Shown in pieces: positions 18,284 to 50,325 of a stretch of DNA of 64,000 nucleotides. Each line of letters starts with the position of its first letter. Within the stretch, counting starts at the first letter, position 1. The notes under the pieces are model-generated. The model searched no databases. It was given only the letters and a program-made list of their open reading frames with translations, and was not told where the DNA came from. The stretch comes from a phage, in NCBI GenBank assembly GCA_018865545.1, contig GCA_018865545.1_3633.1, one strand, 5' to 3'. Both the position numbers and the translations under genes were made by a program.

Positions 18284-20284
18284 ATGAAGATGACAAAATG
18301 GGGGGCTGGTGCATACTTTGAAGGTGAGAACCCAAAAGCATTCCGACCTACAAAAAGTGGTGGTAAAGTGAATTATCAGAAAAAAGAAGAAGAAACTGTA
18401 GAGTCTGTCCTAGATAGTACAAGGATCTTGGCTGTCCCCCAAATGGATATTAGTTTAGATGCAGCTAAGTACTTCAAGATCAGATCTGCAACAGATTTGA
18501 AAGACGGTACTACAGTGGTGGCAACATATCTTCCATATTATGACAAATATGGGAAATTGACAGGGTACAAAAAACGAGACTGGACTGTTCCGAAAGAGAA
18601 AAAGGGGCATTTCTCTGTTGTTGGCACAGTAAAGGCTTCCTCTCAATTTTTTGGTCAACATGAGGCCTCTATGGGATCTGGTAAAAAACAGATCTTTATT
18701 GTTGAGGGGGAAGGTGATGTAACGGCTGGCTGGCAAGCTGGGTTTGAGTATATTAAATTCCTTCATAGCAATCCTAACACGTCACGTTCAGTACGTGAGT
18801 GGGCAAACAATGCTTTAAAAGGCATCAAAGCAATTCAGGATGGGGAAGAGGTTTCTAATTGCCCGACATTACCTTTTATCGGGTTGAACTGTGGTACAGC
18901 CAATGCTGTGGATACATTCGCCCACAACGAAAAGTTTATCAGGGAATATGAAAAGATTGTCCTTGGCTTAGACAATGATGAAGCCACAGCAAGGGAAAAA
19001 GAACACAGAATTAAGAAAGGTAAGGAAGCCACAGATGATGTCGCAGGTTTTTTACTGTCTGACAACATCTATGTTGCACGATACCCAAATGAGCGCAATG
19101 ACCCAAATGGTGTTAAAGATATCCGGGATATTTACAAAAAAGGTAAATGGATGGATATCTGGAATATGTTTGCTAAAGCGCAGGATAAATATGTTCCAGA
19201 CAAATTGATTGGGTTGGAGAGAATATCTATTGAAAATCTCCGTAAAAAGAAAAAAGATGGCGTTCCGTTGCCGTGCTTTCCTCGTTTGTATGAACTAACA
19301 AGAGGCCCACGAACAGGAGAATTGTGGACACTGACAGGCCCATCTGGAGCTGGGAAATCAACTTTCTCAAGAAAGATTGAGTATGCAATTATCGAGTACC
19401 TCCGTAACATGGATATTCCCCGATTAGACGGTTGGAAAGAGAACGAGAAAATTGCAATTATTCGTCTAGAGGAGGATGAGGAGGAGTCTGTAAACAGCTT
19501 ATATGCTGAGGAGCTAAAGATTGACCCGAAAGCATTTGTTGCAGACCCAGAACAATTCCTTACCGATGAGCAGCACTTAGCTATACACCAACGATGGATT
19601 GCCGAAGATAAGGTTAAAATTTTCGATCACTTTGGTTCAATACCAACTGACCAATTACTACAAAAATTGAAACAGATGGTTTTCCTTGATGGGTGTAGAT
19701 GGATTATCTTAGATCACTTATCGATGGTGATATCAGGATTAAAATCCGATAACGAGCGAAGAGATTTAGATAACATCATGACGGAATTGGCTGCCTTCTG
19801 CAAAAAATATGACGTGTTTATCCTCAGTATCAGCCATATGAAGCGTAAAGAGATCCAGATTCCAAAAGACAAAGATGGTAATCTCTTACCGTTTTGGTAT
19901 CCTGTGCGGAAAGAGGATCTCCGTGGGTCAGCAGCACTCGAACAGTTATCATGGGTTGTATTAGGTGTTGAACCTGAAGAACTCCCTGATCGCTCTCGTG
20001 GGCGTATTCGTAGCGTTGTAATGAAAAACCGTCCACATAAAAAATTAGGTATAGCGGATACTCTGATTATGGATGATAATGGTCAGTTTTCTGATGCGTC
20101 AGGATGGGTGTGGGAAGACAATATGTTTAAACTCAACGGGGAGGTAATGCTAAGACCTAAATCAATGGTTCAAAGTTTAGAGCTTGAAACACCTGTGGGT
20201 AAAATTGCTGTTTCTGTTCCTCAACAAGAACCTGCTGTTGTTATTGAGGAACCTGAAGATTTGGACAACGACACACCATTTTGA
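18284..20284 (+). CDS. DNA primase-helicase (TOPRIM plus DnaB-like)
   Basis: TOPRIM-like IFIVEGEGD; Walker A GPSGAGKST; 666 aa. Confidence 0.7.
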   Translation: MKMTKWGAGAYFEGENPKAFRPTKSGGKVNYQKKEEETVESVLDSTRILAVPQMDISLDAAKYFKIRSATDLKDGTTVVATYLPYYDKYGKLTGYKKRDWTVPKEKKGHFSVVGTVKASSQFFGQHEASMGSGKKQIFIVEGEGDVTAGWQAGFEYIKFLHSNPNTSRSVREWANNALKGIKAIQDGEEVSNCPTLPFIGLNCGTANAVDTFAHNEKFIREYEKIVLGLDNDEATAREKEHRIKKGKEATDDVAGFLLSDNIYVARYPNERNDPNGVKDIRDIYKKGKWMDIWNMFAKAQDKYVPDKLIGLERISIENLRKKKKDGVPLPCFPRLYELTRGPRTGELWTLTGPSGAGKSTFSRKIEYAIIEYLRNMDIPRLDGWKENEKIAIIRLEEDEEESVNSLYAEELKIDPKAFVADPEQFLTDEQHLAIHQRWIAEDKVKIFDHFGSIPTDQLLQKLKQMVFLDGCRWIILDHLSMVISGLKSDNERRDLDNIMTELAAFCKKYDVFILSISHMKRKEIQIPKDKDGNLLPFWYPVRKEDLRGSAALEQLSWVVLGVEPEELPDRSRGRIRSVVMKNRPHKKLGIADTLIMDDNGQFSDASGWVWEDNMFKLNGEVMLRPKSMVQSLELETPVGKIAVSVPQQEPAVVIEEPEDLDNDTPF

Positions 20285-20478
20285 GAGAAAAAGAGGATAC
20301 GTGTAAAATATGATGAGTTAGCTATTCGTGTTGCCAAGGGGCTTGAGGGGTACATTCCCGCCAAGAGAAGCCCTTTGGCAAAGAAACATAAATCAAAAAT
20401 AGGTAGTTTTCCACATAATCTATAACCAACTAAGAGATGGGCGACGATACAGTCAAGCCCATCTTGAATAGGAGGAGT

Positions 20479-22515
20479 ATGAAAGGGCTTTTTGTCGGAG
20501 ATAACGAAGCTGACGGATTATTAGAAGAGGCAACTAAATATCACTGCACACTTTTTAAAGAATATGCTGTAAATAACTGGGTGTTGTTTCTCGATCCTGC
20601 TCACAAGGAATACCAGAGTGCAGTTAATTTTGCACGCAGCAAAGAAGGTGTTAATTTACGTATCCTTTCTTATGATGATTTTTACTCTTGGTTGCAGACC
20701 GAGCCAAGAGGGATAGCAATACATAACCTGTTCGGCTATGATTTACGTCTGTGGAAAAAACTTTCTGGGATTGAATATGACATGTTCAAAGACCCAAAAT
20801 GTATGGGGACGATAGGTAATAAACAGGTAAATCTTTACGACACTCTTTCAATGAGTCGTGTTCTTTACCCAGATCGCCCATTGCCTAATGGCTGCCCAGA
20901 TTCTGTATTGAACCCTGTAACAGGAAAACGTGACAGGGTTGGGCCACACGGCTTATTGGCATGGGGTTATCGTGTAGCAAACAAGAAAGTGCAGATTGAT
21001 GATTGGCGTAATCAGCCATTGTGGGAATATGTAAACCGTGTGTGGGAAGACGTTATCATTAACGAACTTGTGTGGAAAGCTCTTATTGATGAGTCAAATG
21101 GTACGCGATGGCCTGATGACAAGCAGTTTATGTACACTGATAAACCTCACGGGATGCACCAGATTAATTGGAAAAATGCATTACGTAGGAGAATGCTCAC
21201 AGACTATTTGATGATAGAGCAAGAAATACAAGGCGTATACTTTAATCGGGAGGAGGCAGAAAAATTAAGAGATCGCATAGATAAGATGATGCGAGAAATT
21301 GAAGAAGAGGTAGAACCACTTCTTCCAAAAAAAGAGATGACGAAATCTCAACAACCAAAATTCCCAGCTAACCCTTTTGACACAGCGGGTAATATATCTC
21401 ATCATGGGTGGAATTGGTTGGAATATAAACTTGGCTATCCTGTTAACAGGGAAGCTCTGGAGTTTAAAGCTCCACCAAAAACAGCTTTTAAGAGTAATGG
21501 GGATGTAAGTGCAGCAGGGGAGAGATATTGCATCCAGAATGGCATTGAAGATCCGGCTTTATACGGTGATTTCATTCGTTCCCAGCGAACCAAAGAGAAC
21601 ACACTCGAACCTTTACCGCCAGATCTTCTAGAGAAGGCTAAAGAAGACCTTCGAAACAGAAAAATGCCAGATTTAATGGTTCCAATGAAAATCTCTAATC
21701 AAGATGATATTAAAAAATATTTGATCAAAGATGCTGGTTGGAAACCTACACTGTGGCGTGTAAAAGATGTTACTAAGGATCAATTTAAAAAGACTCGTGA
21801 AGATTCTGAAATTGATGTACTAGTTAAGAAGTACATAGAAGAGTTGGCAGAGTCTGAGTATAAATCTCTTATTCTTGACTACCTTAATGATTCAGATGAG
21901 AAATTCAACATTTCAGAGCGTAAGTTTGACCATCGCCATGCATCTGAAAGGGGTTATTCAGAGATATTTAAGAAATTTCGGCGTAAAGCACGCCAGTTAC
22001 CGACATCTCCTCAATTAAAAGATAATTTTGGGCATCTGTGTCCAAATTTGGAGAAAATTGATGTGCATATGGCAAAACAGATTGTTAAGTGGCTATCACT
22101 TCGTAACAGGCGATCTGTTTTAGACCCAATGGATGAGGATAAGACGGATACAGGGTTATTAAATCACCCTCGTTTAGACATTGACGGAAAACTTCCAGCA
22201 CGTTTTTCTGGAATCACTAACACGGGCAGGTGCAAGCATACTGTTTGCGCAAACATGCCCAAGCCTGATCCGAAGGTTTTGTTGGGAAAAGAAATGCGGG
22301 GTCTTTGGACAGTCCCTGAAGGCTACTACCTGATGGGTTGTGATGGATCTAACTTAGAAGGTATGATTGCAGCGGCAGGGGCTTTTGAGTTTGATGGTGG
22401 TGAGTATTTACGTATCATGATGGAAGAGGATGCCCATGAACGAAACGCAAGAGCATACACAATAGCAGCAGGAAAGGAGGTAACACGCTCTGGAGGAAAG
22501 GGGGTTACGTATGGT
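20479..22515 (+). CDS. family-A DNA polymerase, exon 1 (3'-5' exonuclease to start of motif B)
   Basis: start ATG 20479 after AGGAGG; Exo I-like FVGDNEADGL; motif A-like CDGSNLEGM; ends ...RSGGKGVTYG, the first half of motif B. Confidence 0.75.
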
Positions 22516-23249
22516 TAATGATAGCCCCCTTACAAAGTAATTTGTAAGGTGCACCCATTGAATTGCTGGGAAGTCTGACCGAGTTATGTCGAAGATAATC
22601 AGCAGGTAAGCGAATGCTTCCCTCTTACAAAAGGAGGGAGAATATGAGTACATTTTGTTGTATAATCTGCGGTGAACAATGTGTTAAAACTGGTAAAAAT
22701 CAAAAAGTATGTCTCTCTGAAGGTTGTAGAAGAGAATATTCAAAGATAAAAACCAGAGAATATAGACGCAGAAAGGCCGAAAGAGAAAATAGGCTTGACA
22801 GAGTTGGCATAGGAAAAGGTGGTGGGCAGCCTCGTGGGAAATTGTCCAAATTTTATAAAAATGGCATATCGATGTTTCGTAAGTTATCCCCTGTCATAAA
22901 GGAACAGAGAAGATACTGTAATAGATGTAATAAAGATCTTCTTTATGCAGGTAAGGATGAGTGGTGCGTTCATCATATTGACCATGATAGGACGAATAAC
23001 GAAATAAGTAATTTTGAATTACTTTGTAAAAAATGCCATCAAATAGAACATAAATGTTGGGAAGCATTCGAAACTTCAACGACTAGCCGAAAGGCGTAGG
23101 GCCAAGCGGTGAGGGAAACCTCCAGTCTTTCAGACTGCCGAAGCAGTGGGCATCCTGAAAAGGATGAAGATATAGTCTGATCTGCATAGAAATATGTAGC
23201 AGTTCCTAAGAGGACGGGCATGGTGTAGCGAGCCATGTTGAACAATATG
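22516..23249 (+). mobile_element. group I self-splicing intron (IA-like) in the DNA polymerase gene
   Basis: exon 1 ends in U, intron ends in G; P-like AATTGCTGGGAAG (22561-22573), Q-like AATCAGCAGG (22597-22606), R-like TTCAACGACTAG (23075-23086), S-like GAAGATATAGTCTG (23166-23179); several GNRA-capped hairpins; HNH ORF between Q and R. Confidence 0.75.
22644..23099 (+). CDS. intron-encoded HNH homing endonuclease
   Basis: N-terminal Cys-rich zinc-finger-like region; C-terminal CVHHIDHDRTNN...CKKCH HNH motif; start ATG 22644 after AAGGAGGGAG. Confidence 0.7.
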   Translation: MSTFCCIICGEQCVKTGKNQKVCLSEGCRREYSKIKTREYRRRKAERENRLDRVGIGKGGGQPRGKLSKFYKNGISMFRKLSPVIKEQRRYCNRCNKDLLYAGKDEWCVHHIDHDRTNNEISNFELLCKKCHQIEHKCWEAFETSTTSRKA

Positions 23250-23882
23250 ATCATGTATGGAGCACAAGCTCCTAAGATAGCCGCAATGCTGGGTATCCCC
23301 CTTAATAGAGCACAGGCTGTAATAGACGCATTCTGGGATAGTAACTTCGGGTTGAAAATGCGTAGAGAGTGGTTAGAAAAATTCTGGGAGGCAAATGGGA
23401 GACGCTATATTCCAGGCATGGACGGGCGTAAAATTTGGACTCGTTCTAAACATTCTCTGCTGAATGCTTACCAACAAAACGGTGGTGCTTCATTGTTTGA
23501 CCTCATGGGAGTCCTGTTCCATTGGGAATTGGTGAAACGGGGATGGTACGACCAAGGTGTCAGGAGGGTTATCTACTACCACGATGAGATACAGGTACAA
23601 GTACCGGAAAGATTTAAATCAATAACGGAGCATTCTAACTTAGAGGCTGCACAAAGCTATGTAGACATGATGCTTGAAAAAGGCCATCGTTTCGACGGGC
23701 ATTATGTGAAAGCAGGTAAAGTTATTGTTGAACCTGATGTGTATGGGAAATACAGGATACTGCATTGCCCAGTAGGAGAGCTTGCAACAAAATGTGTAGA
23801 AAAAGCATCTAAGATAATGGGACTTCCCGTTTTAATTACAGGAGAATATCTTTGTGGATACACATGGGCAGATTCCCACTGA
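23250..23882 (+). CDS. family-A DNA polymerase, exon 2 (rest of motif B, motif C)
   Basis: begins IMYGAQAPKIA, completing motif B (K..YG..YGA...KI) when joined to exon 1; YYHDEIQV matches motif C. Confidence 0.75.
   Translation: MMYGAQAPKIAAMLGIPLNRAQAVIDAFWDSNFGLKMRREWLEKFWEANGRRYIPGMDGRKIWTRSKHSLLNAYQQNGGASLFDLMGVLFHWELVKRGWYDQGVRRVIYYHDEIQVQVPERFKSITEHSNLEAAQSYVDMMLEKGHRFDGHYVKAGKVIVEPDVYGKYRILHCPVGELATKCVEKASKIMGLPVLITGEYLCGYTWADSH
23854..23870 (+). repeat. direct repeat, copy 1 (flanks freestanding HNH gene)
   Basis: GTGGATACACATGGGCA; 14 of 17 nt identical to copy 2 at 24410-24426. Confidence 0.4.
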
Positions 23883-24492
23883 TGAAGTAGAGGAAATTTG
23901 GAAGGATATCGTAGGGTATCCTGATTATCAAGTAAGTAATTATGGAAATGTAAGATCTTTTAAATCAGGAATGTGGAAATACTTAAAAACTAAAAGTGAA
24001 AATTTATCTCCACAATGCTATCCGAGCGTGTGCTTGTACAAAAGGGGTAAAGATTCAGGGAAAAGTTTTTCAGTCCATAGACTTGTAGCGGAGGCTTTTA
24101 AAGAGCCTCCTTCTCCAGAATTGCAGAAAGAATGTAGAAAAACTGTGCTAGGAGTTCCAATTATAAACCACATAGATGGTGACAGACATAATAATAGGGT
24201 TGAAAATCTTGAGTGGTGTACCTATAGCCATAACAATACAGTGGCTTATGGTATGGGGAGAATCCAAAAATTTGGTGATGATTATCATTTATCTGTTCTT
24301 ACAAAGGAGAAAGTTTTAGAGATTGTACGGCTTATTGATTGTGGGATAACACACAAAGCTATTGCGGAACTATTCGGAGTTTCCAGAAATACAATATCTT
24401 CTTTAAATAATGGATACTCATGGTCACATGTCACAGGAAGACCTAAGAAAGTCCAGAAAAGAAGATCAAAAACAGACCCTATATCAGAGTAA
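23854..24492 (+). CDS. freestanding HNH homing endonuclease (NUMOD4-like N-terminus, HNH, C-terminal HTH)
   Basis: EEIWKDIVGYPDYQVSNYGNVRS; HIDGDRHNNRVENLEW; HTH-like ITHKAIAELFGVSRNTIS; GTG start overlaps the polymerase 3' end. Confidence 0.65.
   Translation: MDTHGQIPTDEVEEIWKDIVGYPDYQVSNYGNVRSFKSGMWKYLKTKSENLSPQCYPSVCLYKRGKDSGKSFSVHRLVAEAFKEPPSPELQKECRKTVLGVPIINHIDGDRHNNRVENLEWCTYSHNNTVAYGMGRIQKFGDDYHLSVLTKEKVLEIVRLIDCGITHKAIAELFGVSRNTISSLNNGYSWSHVTGRPKKVQKRRSKTDPISE
24410..24426 (+). repeat. direct repeat, copy 2
   Basis: ATGGATACTCATGGTCA. Confidence 0.4.
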
Positions 24493-48195: not shown

Positions 48196-49014
48196 CTTAT
48201 TGTCCCCTCAGTTCGCTACACTGAGGCGGTGTGCTAAAACACCCGCCACATGTTTCCATGTGGAACAGACTATATCTTCCTCTGATTTTACAGAGGCCAA
48301 CCATTTCGGAGCGGCTTCGCCCCTACTCTCCTACACTCATCGGAGATAGTCGTTGAGCACATAACTTAAAGATTTTTTAATAAACGTCGCCAAGCATTTT
48401 TATGTTTTATCCTGTGGATAGTTGATCTTGTTACACCAAACTCATTCATTAAAGATGTTGTATCCTCAAAACGCCTGTGGTAAATCCTAATAACTTGATC
48501 TTCTGTTAATTTGCAATTAGGATTTCTTTTTCCATCTACGGAGTTTAGACCTTTTGAGAAAGCATGTTTTTGGTTCTGCGACCTAGTAACATACTCCAGA
48601 TTATCTTTGTGGTTGTTGGCCTTATTACCATCTTTATGGTTAACTTCCATTTTTGGATGTGGCGGTTCACCAATGAATGTTAATGCGACTATCCTGTGTA
48701 CAAGATACAATACACACTTTCCGTCTACCCTAAAGTAAACTCTTTTATATCCATTGTGTATTGTTTGCTCAGTTAGTTTCTTCCATGTACCTCTTTTTGT
48801 TGAAAAGATTGCACCATCTTCTCGACAAAAGTACCCGTTATGTCCAGGCACGGGTCTAATCTCTAAGTTACTTCGCTGCGGATTGTCCATTGTTACATCT
48901 CCAAACTTTTTACTATACCTGAGATAGTTATTCTCAGCCATTATTATGTTACCATAATAATTTAGTATTTGGTAGCTTTAGGAGTTCCCCGCAATTAGAT
49001 TGGTTTTACAACAG
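48196..49014 (-). mobile_element. group I intron (IA-like) with HNH ORF; minimum extent, 5' splice site unresolved
   Basis: minus-strand RNA carries R-like CAACGACUA (48347-48355), S-like GAAGAUAUAGUCUG (48266-48279), GNRA-capped P9-like hairpin, P-like AAUUGCGGGG (48987-48996); GC-rich stem-dense segment 48200-48360. Confidence 0.6.
48366..48941 (-). CDS. intron-encoded HNH homing endonuclease
   Basis: NUMOD4-like N-terminus; HNH motif EVNHKDGNKANNHKDNLEY; C-terminal HTH-like region. Confidence 0.7.
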   Translation of the reverse strand: MAENNYLRYSKKFGDVTMDNPQRSNLEIRPVPGHNGYFCREDGAIFSTKRGTWKKLTEQTIHNGYKRVYFRVDGKCVLYLVHRIVALTFIGEPPHPKMEVNHKDGNKANNHKDNLEYVTRSQNQKHAFSKGLNSVDGKRNPNCKLTEDQVIRIYHRRFEDTTSLMNEFGVTRSTIHRIKHKNAWRRLLKNL

Positions 49015-50325
49015 CTAGTATGTCAACTGTTGTTTTAATTCTTCAGCCATGATCTGACCTTTACCCATCATTTGTTGGATAGCGGTAATACCACGCTGGA
49101 ATTTTACAGGATCAACCTGAAGTGCAGTAGCATATTCTGAGAAACCTTTGAACAGTTCGTCATTTTGCGCCTTGCTCAAAACACCTTTGGCAGATATGGA
49201 CATTTGGGTATAACCTTGGGCGGCGGTTTTTAAATCCAAACCCAATCTGTAAGATTGCTCCCGAACAAACTGTATTCTTTTCGCTGCTTCTTCTGAGTCA
49301 TCAGAAACCATTAACATGGTAGCTTCCATGCCTTGAAAGAATTGTCCTGTTTTCACAACACTTGCGGCAGCATTAAAAGCTCCGTATGCAGCAGAAACAC
49401 TAATTAATGTGCTACGAAGGTTTTTCAATCCTTGATCAAGAGATAGTGTATTTGCCTTAGCTTTGCGGAGTCCTGTTTCCATTGCTGCCAATTCAGCACG
49501 GAAATTAGAAGCTCTCATAGTCTGGCTTTGCATAAATCTCTTTTCCAGATCATCATAACCTTTAATTTTAGACCTGAAATCATCACCATACTTAGCACGA
49601 AGTCTTACAGCAGCATTAGCAATTGTTGATTGTTTTGCAGCCTTTATCCTTTCTGCTCTTAACGCTTCTCTTTCTTTCTTCTTATTAGCATCTTTTTCTG
49701 CCTTAATCTCATCCGCTGTTTTTTCTTTCGGAATAGATTTATGATAGCGTTCCATAGCAGAGTTCTGGGCAGCCACAAGACTTGGATCGTGACGACTATT
49801 AGGATCCCCAACAATACCAGAGGCAGACCCTGAAGACTTTCTTGCTGCAAGTTCTTGCTGCAATCTTGCTTGACGGGCAGCAGATATTTCTGGATTTGTT
49901 CCATATCCAGAACCTGTTTTTTCCATCTGCTTCAACTTTGATTTTAATGCATTATATTCTTTTTGTTCTTCAGGTGTTCTTCTGTTTGTTAGTCTGGCTA
50001 CTGCTTGCTTTCTTCTCGCGCTCTCAACTTTGGCTATTTGTTCACGAGCACGAGCTTCCTTTTTTGCCATTGCAATAGCATGTGCCGTAGATTTTGCTTG
50101 CTCTGCACGTTCAGTTTGGTGTAATCTTTTAGCTACAAGACGAGCCTCTTGCGCAGAACGTTTATAAATTGCTGCCGGATTACTTTTATTAGAAGTGAAA
50201 GCTCTGTTAGTCTTTTCCCATTCCTTCTTCAGGGATTTTATAGCTTTCATTGCACGACCGTAACTGGTGCGATCTACAGACCACTCGACAGCATTTACGG
50301 TTTTAGTTACTATGATATTCGCCAT
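49015..50325 (-). CDS. tail tape measure protein, N-terminal part (putative exon 1)
   Basis: Ala/Lys/Glu/Arg-rich coiled-coil; directly downstream of the frameshifted chaperone pair; the last 20-30 codons may be intron-encoded. Confidence 0.5.
   Translation of the reverse strand: MANIIVTKTVNAVEWSVDRTSYGRAMKAIKSLKKEWEKTNRAFTSNKSNPAAIYKRSAQEARLVAKRLHQTERAEQAKSTAHAIAMAKKEARAREQIAKVESARRKQAVARLTNRRTPEEQKEYNALKSKLKQMEKTGSGYGTNPEISAARQARLQQELAARKSSGSASGIVGDPNSRHDPSLVAAQNSAMERYHKSIPKEKTADEIKAEKDANKKKEREALRAERIKAAKQSTIANAAVRLRAKYGDDFRSKIKGYDDLEKRFMQSQTMRASNFRAELAAMETGLRKAKANTLSLDQGLKNLRSTLISVSAAYGAFNAAASVVKTGQFFQGMEATMLMVSDDSEEAAKRIQFVREQSYRLGLDLKTAAQGYTQMSISAKGVLSKAQNDELFKGFSEYATALQVDPVKFQRGITAIQQMMGKGQIMAEELKQQLTY

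Follow-up and report, generated by a model that had tools for sequence, protein, structure and literature searches.

The window analysed here, a stretch of 64,000 nucleotides of phage DNA, raises the question of how a complete DNA polymerase could be made from a gene whose reading frame breaks off inside a conserved motif (motif B) and is taken up again 734 nt downstream. The answer at which we arrive is that the segment 22516-23249 is very probably a mobile group I intron (subgroup IA2) that sits in phase 0 within polymerase motif B and carries an HNH gene. In this region, the DNA shows 98.6% identity to Escherichia phage Av-05, a member of the genus Avunavirus (Vequintavirinae), and approximately 97% identity to phages 18-1-2, 19-1-2, 24-2-1 and TH18. 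Coordinates of the genes, predicted helices and conserved elements are listed in Table 1.

A sequence-only reading of this DNA had reported a polymerase frame that ends with the stop at 22516-22518, is taken up again at 23250 (IMYGAQAPKIA) and gives family-A motif B once the two parts are joined. These observations were confirmed. Exon 1 is directly followed by three stop codons in its own frame, TAA TGA TAG, at 22516-22524; its longest open reading frame opens at 20437, and the Av-05 annotation corresponds to a start at 20479. The joined polymerase comprises 889 aa and shows 86.6% identity, with one gap, to the uninterrupted 889-aa polymerase of Raoultella phage Ro1. The alignment to T7 polymerase, which had been proposed as a check of the spliced product, covers T7 residues 465-654 (E 1e-13), with motif A (GCDGSNLE vs GIDASGLE in T7), motif B (TRSGGKGVTYG/IMYGAQAPKIA, the slash marking the exon junction, vs TRDNAKTFIYGFLYGAGDEKIG in T7) and motif C (HDEIQV in both) in colinear order. 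The exon junction falls between the equivalents of T7 G527 and F528 in the O-helix of motif B, a site that we take to lie at about position 763/764 of E. coli Pol I. With the Pfam model DNA_pol_A (cut-off 34.3 bits), the joined protein scored 39.8 bits in a match that crosses the junction; exon 2 alone reached 17.9 bits, under the same cut-off, and exon 1 alone gave no match to this model. Motifs A, B and C are colinear on one family-A polypeptide only after exon joining.

The boundaries of the insert can be read from Ro1, a phage of the same subfamily with an intron-less polymerase gene. Its protein is unbroken across the insertion point (...GGKGITYGIMYGAQAAK...), and its DNA reads ACC TAT GGG ATC ATG TAT GGT at this position (GITYGIMYG); a target of this intron-less type has ...GGTATAACCTATGGG before and ATCATGTATGGTGCT... 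after the insertion point. Because the Ro1 allele fixes the junction, the insert is exactly 22516-23249 (734 nt) and lies in phase 0; U22515 closes the exon and G23249 the intron, as expected from the initial description of a 734-nt insert that follows an exon U and ends in G. A register shifted one base leftward would leave the protein unchanged but violate the U/G rule. In the predicted P1, the 5' splice site is marked by the wobble pair U22515-G22524, and the helix contains only three pairs between the exon and the internal guide sequence (IGS) plus two pairs from intron bases. We discarded an alternative P1 that pairs GGGGG (22500-04) with CCCCC (22525-29), since it would move the splice site 10 nt upstream, in conflict with the Ro1 allele, and since the orthologues do not conserve the G-run.

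Table 1 Genes, predicted ribozyme helices and conserved elements at the interrupted polymerase locus (window positions). Slashes separate the two strands of a helix; within the P1 sequence the slash marks the splice site.
Feature	Position	Strand	Remarks
Primase-helicase gene	18284-20284		DnaB_C domain (Pfam); precedes the interrupted DNA polymerase
DNA polymerase exon 1	20437..22515	+	longest ORF; ends ...GGKGVTYG, last base U22515
P1	22513-17 / 22522-26 (hairpin 22513..22526)	+	GGU/UA AUGA UAGCC; invariant in 6 orthologues
Group I intron (predicted IA2)	22516..23249	+	734 nt; UAA UGA UAG at start; terminal G (omega-G) 23249
P10	22518-22 / 23250-54	+	guide AUGAU complementary to exon 2 AUCAU, 5 bp; read from sequence
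P2	22528-36 / 22541-49	+	9-bp stem, GUAA loop; 4 pairs with compensatory changes
P3	22554-60 CCCAUUG / 23144-50 CAGUGGG	+	C-G to U-A compensatory change
P4-P5 domain	22561..22606	+	element P, P4, A-rich J4/5, P5, P5a, element Q; invariant in orthologues
Element P	22561-22572	+	AAUUGCUGGGAA
P4	22563-68 / 22600-05	+	
P5	22574-76 / 22593-95	+	
P5a	22577-79 / 22588-90	+	
Element Q	22597-22606	+	AAUCAGCAGG
P6	22608-10 AAG / 23074-76 CUU	+	
P6a	22611-22 CGAAUGCUUCCC / 23059-70 GGGAAGCAUUCG	+	2 compensatory pairs
SD-sequestering hairpin	22620..22638	+	CCCUCUU-ACAAA-AGGAGGG; Shine-Dalgarno sequence (SD) in 3' arm
HNH homing-endonuclease gene (predicted)	22644..23099	+	151 aa; in P6a loop; own frame, not that of the polymerase
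Element R	23074-23086	+	CUUCAACGACUAG
P7	23081-85 GACUA (in element R) / 23173-77 UAGUC (in element S)	+	pseudoknot with P3
P7.1	23086-95	+	GCC-GAAA-GGC
GUA linker	23096-98	+	joins P7.1 and P7.2
P7.2	23099-139	+	contains 26-nt two-hairpin insertion
P8	23152-65	+	AUCCU-GAAA-AGGAU; 2 compensatory pairs
J8/7 and P7 3' strand	23166..23178	+	element S (GAAGAUAUAGUCU)
Element S	23167-23177	+	AAGAUAUAGUC
P9	23182-99	+	GAAA loop
P9.1	23202-15	+	
P9.2	23217-39	+	
DNA polymerase exon 2	23250..23882	+	opens IMYGAQAPKIA; motif C HDEIQV; stop codon 23880-23882
Free-standing NUMOD4/HNH gene			next after the DNA polymerase in gene order

For structure prediction, the intron was folded in an ORF-deleted form lacking 22623-23058. 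The minimum free energy structure (-114 kcal/mol; z = -6.58) recovered P2, P3, P4, P5/P5a, P6a, P8, P9, P9.1 and P9.2. In the resulting model, the core helices P3-P9 follow the canonical order and include the P3/P7 pseudoknot and the P4-P6 domain, and P6/P6a close a 436-nt loop that carries the endonuclease ORF, leaving an AAA bulge between the 3' strands of P6a and P6 (23059..23076). All four elements P, Q, R and S, which had been described as lying in canonical order, were located, and the "several" GNRA-capped hairpins of the same description amount to five (GUAA on P2; GAAA on P7.1, P7.2a, P8 and P9). Elements P and S each have exactly two copies in the 64 kb window, both times as P followed by S on one strand; the second copies belong to a second intron, in the tape-measure gene. 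Two candidate pairings were discarded on comparison with the orthologues. A long-range helix between GGGAAG (22564-69) and CUUCCC (22617-22) meets GGGAAA or GGAAAA in the orthologues, and a P5 composed of GUUAU/AUAAU is broken in phiTE; the conserved pairings UCU/AGA and GAC/GUC were taken instead. A promoter and terminator scan of 22300-23400 gave nothing over background.

Subgroup IA2 is recognised by two extra helices, P7.1 and P7.2, that lie between P7 and P3' and are connected by G-U-A (PMC3428280). P7.1, the GUA linker and P7.2 are all present in the modelled structure, which assigns the predicted ribozyme to this subgroup. Its P7.2 contains an insertion of 26 nt, consisting of the hairpins P7.2a (23111-22) and P7.2b (23123-37), which among the six aligned orthologues is found only in the window and in Av-05. 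The inserted hairpins are clean and bulge out of a P7.2 that is otherwise intact, as are all core elements.

A scan of the whole window with Rfam at the default gathering thresholds gave no group I match. In E-value mode, the group I model RF00028 detected the intron at 22996-23199 with 46.8 bits (E 1.5e-10 for 1 kb and 9e-9 for 64 kb); like the fold z-score, these values are far from what chance would give. The covariance-model search that had been suggested for this locus therefore supports a group I intron by its E-value, but with a score 3.2 bits short of the gathering score of 50 bits. The alignment covers only P7-P9, where P7, P3', P8, J8/7 and P9 are placed correctly; the 5' half of the model is forced onto ORF sequence, as the ribozyme halves lie 436 nt apart. 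Same-site orthologues exceed the gathering score (phiTE 52.1 bits, SSE121 63.8 bits) with alignments that span the ORF, and ORF-less introns with the same 18-nt P3-J3/4-P4 signature reach 72-93 bits. This 18-mer, CCATTGAATTGCTGGRAA, marks about 115 intron loci in IMG/VR; since only three of them are orthologues at the polymerase site, the scan gave no new lineages for covariation analysis.

Covariation was analysed in an alignment of six ORF-trimmed introns (window, Av-05, NDO71, KpS11, phiTE and CB7), from which the intron of Salmonella phage SSE121 was left out because its P4-P6 region differs. Standard pairs form in 99.1% of the cells, and 12 pairs, distributed over P2, P3, P6a, P7.1, P8, P9 and P9.2, are changed on both sides, figures that come from about three or four independent lineages only and from a structure drawn from the same sequences. 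Controls in which the 3' partners were slid by 1-3 columns showed 34-43% pairing and 0-3 doubly changed pairs. Since the orthologues show no variation in P4, P5, P6 and P7, covariation is uninformative on these helices.

The internal open reading frame had been placed, together with its own ribosome-binding site, between elements Q and R. This holds for its 5' part: a Shine-Dalgarno sequence, GGAGG, at 22633-22637, 6 nt before the start codon, and the start codon itself lie between Q and R. It does not hold for the 3' end, because the ORF overlaps the 3' ribozyme core: the last 41 nt double as P6a', P6', J6/7, P7 and P7.1, the last 26 nt pass through R/P7 and P7.1, and the stop codon UAG overlaps the GUA linker. 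Over its full length the protein matches phrog_25862 (HNH endonuclease; E 8e-93), and both Pfam matches remain under the curated cut-offs (HNH 20.5 vs 21.4 bits; HNH_3 21.8 vs 24.8 bits). It shows the motif CxxC...HH.DH...N....N....CxxCH...H near its C-terminus (residues 92-136), in which C92, C95, H110, H111, D113, H114, N118, N123, C128, C131, H132 and H136 are invariant in six homologues. The ORF is thus predicted to encode an HNH homing endonuclease with a beta-beta-alpha metal-finger motif. The hairpin that encloses its Shine-Dalgarno sequence has an equivalent in Av-05, NDO71, phiTE and CB7 despite sequence differences. Introns of phage T4 provide a precedent for a Shine-Dalgarno hairpin that restrains translation, and by analogy the hairpin in the window would restrain translation of the endonuclease.

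Next, we compared the intron with its relatives. Orthologous introns occupy the same site in the five other aligned records (Av-05, NDO71, KpS11, phiTE and CB7). Those of the Klebsiella phages NDO71 and KpS11 (genus Mydovirus) are 74% identical to the window intron, and those of the Pectobacterium phages phiTE and CB7 (genus Certrevirus) 68%. Salmonella phage SSE121 (genus Seunavirus) has an intron at the same site with another endonuclease gene, located in another loop, which brings the genera in which this insertion site is occupied to four. Intron-bearing NDO71 and intron-less Ro1 belong to one genus, and their polymerase exons are 93.6% identical. At the protein level, a homologue of the 83-aa polymerase segment spanning the junction is present in 575 phage records, in 539 of which 80% or more of the segment is covered in one place; among the matches listed, every one with at least 80% coverage is a single uninterrupted match across the segment.

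Within the genus Avunavirus, Av-05 (NC_025830) contains an unannotated copy that is 98.9% identical over 734 nt, at the same site and with the same HNH gene, and phages 18-1-2, 19-1-2, 24-2-1 and TH18 have copies at this site that are 98.0% identical over 734 nt and likewise carry the HNH gene. All five records list split "DNA polymerase" CDSs and annotate no intron, and the genome announcement of Av-05 mentions neither introns nor HNH genes. For CB7, a member of Certrevirus in contrast to the Avunavirus phage of the window, Buttimer et al. (2020) entered CB7_52, located between CB7_51 and CB7_53 of the split polymerase, as an "intron associated with homing endonuclease", and demonstrated by RT-PCR that it is spliced at the mRNA level (PMC7344957). 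CB7_52 is the orthologue aligned here. The introns of CB7 and phiTE share with the window intron the site (TAYGGT/TAAT...G/ATCATGTAYGG), the ribozyme architecture and an HNH gene in P6a (68% aa identity), but they are 713 nt long, lack the 26-nt insertion in P7.2, have a GUGA-capped 4-bp P7.1 and begin with a single stop codon. The CB7 paper gives neither a secondary structure nor a subgroup for this intron (PMC7344957). The intron lineage was already present in GenBank in several genera, with splicing shown in one of them. The features that set the window and Av-05 copies apart are modest, namely the 26-nt P7.2 insertion, the GAAA-capped 3-bp P7.1 and the three in-frame stops.

Introns in family-A polymerase genes have been described at other positions. 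In E. coli Pol I numbering, the known sites are 674 (SPO1, SP82, Bastille and Pf-WMP3), 676 (phiL7) and 881 (PhiI and W31) (PMC3428280). Similar in type are the introns of PhiI and W31, which are T7-like phages (Bonocora and Shub 2004, via PMC3428280): they also belong to IA2, contain the HNH gene in P6a and reside in the family-A polymerase gene of phages with an enterobacterial host. They are inserted at 881, however, whereas the window site lies in motif B, and we set the sequences apart by site alone. The introns of SPO1, SP82, Bastille and Pf-WMP3, which encode I-HmuI, I-HmuII, I-BasI and I-PfoP3I, are IA2 introns in family-A polymerase genes as well and carry HNH nicking endonucleases (PMC3428280), but are located at 674. 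The Pf-WMP3 intron opens, like the window intron, with a UAA that serves as exon 1's stop codon, and an HNH gene in the P6a loop is found in the PhiI, W31 and Pf-WMP3 introns (PMC3428280). Enzymes of the I-HmuI type have an N-terminal HNH motif, while that of the window enzyme is C-terminal, as reported for I-PfoP3I and phiL7 gp45.

A further polymerase intron, annotated as a joined CDS, is present in Escherichia phage vB_EcoM_4HA13 (Chaseviridae, NC_049466). It interrupts the same turn of motif B (KTTNYA/.QYGAG vs KGVTYG/IMYGAQ in the window), and its HNH gene is related to that of the window (44% identity over the C-terminal half). In contrast, its splice site, as read from its P1, lies one nt further 3' (phase 1), the 5' half of its ribozyme is unlike that of the window, and the phage belongs to another family. 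The motif B site differs from the classical sites 674, 676 and 881 and is not unique to the subfamily.

Three other explanations of the locus have to be weighed against a spliced group I intron. An intein or another in-frame insertion at the protein level is favored only by the placement within a conserved replication-gene motif. This reading is refuted by the sequence, as three consecutive in-frame stops open the insert; moreover, the internal ORF is read from a Shine-Dalgarno sequence and start of its own, in a frame other than that of the polymerase, and Pfam finds in it no intein/Hint domain, only the weak HNH matches. We give it practically no chance. Alternatively, the insert could be a homing-endonuclease cassette that is kept in the RNA, with the polymerase made as two assembling polypeptides, an arrangement that the CB7 authors cite for nrdA/mobE of Aeromonas phage Aeh1 (PMC7344957). 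GenBank indeed holds two or three separate "DNA polymerase" CDSs for Av-05, NDO71, phiTE and CB7, in-frame ATGs exist at 23235, 23247 and 23253, and another intron-like insert of CB7, CB7_245, did not splice (PMC7344957). However, these ATGs are not preceded by a Shine-Dalgarno sequence, the break would split the O-helix between the positions that correspond to T7 Y526 and Y530, and a complete ribozyme core maintained by covariation would be left with no reason to persist. Together with the splicing of the orthologous CB7_52 (PMC7344957), these points make two separate polypeptides extremely unlikely.

The remaining possibilities accept the intron and concern its efficiency. It might be a poor self-splicer that requires the help of a protein from the phage or the host, or one that is spliced only in part. 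The P1 with only three exon-IGS pairs, the additional two-hairpin insert in P7.2 of the window and Av-05 copies and the RF00028 score of 46.8 bits, against 52-64 bits for the orthologues, would all fit such a weakness. On the other hand, P1 is equally short in the CB7 orthologue, which splices in vivo, the P7.2 insert forms two clean hairpins beside fully intact core elements, and splicing must be adequate because the polymerase is presumably essential for phage replication. For these reasons, we regard inefficient splicing as very unlikely. Conditional splicing, by which the intron would gate polymerase synthesis, or an independent function of the stop-terminated exon 1 product, appears very improbable to us; the P7.2 insertion and the 3-bp exon-guide pairing might nevertheless make ligation dependent on a factor of the phage or host or on timing.

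The claim of a group I intron with an HNH gene inside motif B is thus upheld by the Ro1 junction, the fold with its compensatory changes, the Rfam match by E-value together with same-site orthologues above the gathering score, and the RT-PCR result for CB7 (PMC7344957). According to this preferred reading, the polymerase pre-mRNA would fold and exogenous guanosine would attack after U22515; the freed 3'-OH would then attack after G23249 and the exons would be ligated, which is predicted to restore one colinear family-A polymerase. The three in-frame stops at the intron start would release ribosomes that translate unspliced RNA. We infer the splicing steps and the ribosome release from the established group I mechanism and the RT-PCR on the CB7 orthologue. 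The HNH enzyme, in turn, would nick or cut intron-less polymerase alleles of co-infecting relatives near the site, and repair from the intron-bearing copy would spread the intron (homing).

The finding leaves the general understanding of group I introns unchanged, and its consequences concern annotation and comparative analysis. In the window phage, Av-05 and many Vequintavirinae records, the polymerase calls for annotation as a single joined CDS plus an intron feature; at present, such records contain two or three "DNA polymerase" fragments. In addition, the locus represents a clean comparative set for the turnover of introns and homing-endonuclease genes, with four genera at one site, a different endonuclease gene in SSE121, intron-plus and intron-minus alleles within one genus and a mosaic of three introns.

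This mosaic follows from the differing presence and absence of three optional introns at the tape-measure and polymerase sites of phages that are otherwise approximately 97-99% identical. The second group I intron of the window (830 nt, minus strand, 49025-48196) splits the tape-measure gene, has its own P and S elements and is detected by RF00028 with 32.3 bits (E 2e-4); its HNH gene encodes 191 aa and is of the phrog_59 type. When 50325-49026 is joined to 48195-47075, the product is a protein of 806 aa that is colinear with the uninterrupted 793-aa tape-measure protein of Av-05. Conversely, Av-05 has a second polymerase insert of 844 nt with an HNH gene further into the gene, which is absent from the window, where the corresponding site (23581/23583) is empty. 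Near this 23581/23583 site, phage 18-1-2 carries an ORF-less intron of 275 nt that scores 91 bits with RF00028.

We compared the polymerase introns of related phages with the intron in motif B of the window. Salmonella phage SSE121 carries an intron at the same insertion site, and the P1-P4 and P7-P9.2 sequences of the two introns are almost the same, whereas the P4-P6 region differs. The HNH ORF of SSE121, which is unrelated to that of the window, appears to be located within the P5 loop; the 3' strand of P4 comes after the ORF. This combination of a shared site and scaffold with a differing P4-P6 region and an unrelated ORF suggests that the endonuclease gene was swapped within one ribozyme scaffold.

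An intron was also observed in the polymerase gene of Escherichia phage vB_EcoM_4HA13 (Chaseviridae), annotated in RefSeq as a joined CDS; its HNH gene is related to that of the window intron. The insertion falls in the same motif B turn, between KTTNYA and.QYGAG, but a reading of its P1 places the splice site one nucleotide away from that of the window. The first nine bases of the window intron, UAA UGA UAG (22516-22524), are all three stop codons in succession in the polymerase frame, whereas orthologues in other genera open with UAAUUGAUAG and a single stop; a one-base deletion in the P1 loop accounts for this difference.

The 18-mer CCATTGAATTGCTGGRAA, covering P3, J3/4 and P4, occurs in 115 viral contigs (IMG/VR, L008-L122). 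In nearly all of these, the same strand carries the S element GATATAGTC at a downstream distance of 130-900 nt. Contigs L010, L023, L033, L060, L075 and L119 each contain two such introns within 0.5-1.3 kb. Vibrio phage VnaP and a few other more distant phages matched the junction-spanning 83-aa polymerase query in its exon 2 part only (residues 34-83); their polymerase genes may be interrupted at this motif B position or close to it.

In addition, polymerase exon 2 of Escherichia phage Av-05 has a second insert, with an HNH gene, at a site that is empty in the window. A second polymerase insert is present also in phiTE, CB7 and SSE121, and in phage 18-1-2 a group I intron without an ORF lies close to the Av-05 site (91.2 bits against the Rfam group I model RF00028). 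The tail tape-measure gene of the window is itself split by a second group I intron, matched by RF00028 at 48246-48461 (32.3 bits, E 2e-4). The joined segments 50325-49026 and 48195-47075 encode a protein of 806 aa, which is colinear with the uninterrupted tape-measure protein of Av-05; the gene lacks this intron in Av-05 and the 18-1-2 group. Counting the tape-measure intron, three optional introns are distributed as a mosaic among near-identical Av-05-like phages.

Coordinates of introns, intron elements and endonuclease genes in the window and in loci of related phages
Feature	Location	Strand	Details
Tape-measure intron	window 48196-49025	minus	830 nt
P element, tape-measure intron	window 48996-48985	minus	
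S element, tape-measure intron	window 48278-48268	minus	
P1, tape-measure intron			ACAACAGU (splice site) U... / GCUGUUGU
HNH endonuclease gene in tape-measure intron	window 48941-48366	minus	191 aa, phrog_59 type
Empty second polymerase site	window 23581-23583		
Free-standing NUMOD4 + HNH_3 + helix-turn-helix endonuclease gene	window 23854-24492	plus	212 aa, phrog_59
Av-05 second polymerase insert	L001 4583-5426		844 nt
18-1-2 intron	L126 3074-3348		
SSE121 intron	L005 2497-3179		
4HA13 intron	L125 2228-2890		

The last 29 nt of the window's polymerase gene are overlapped by the free-standing endonuclease gene, and the two genes are arranged in the same way in Av-05.
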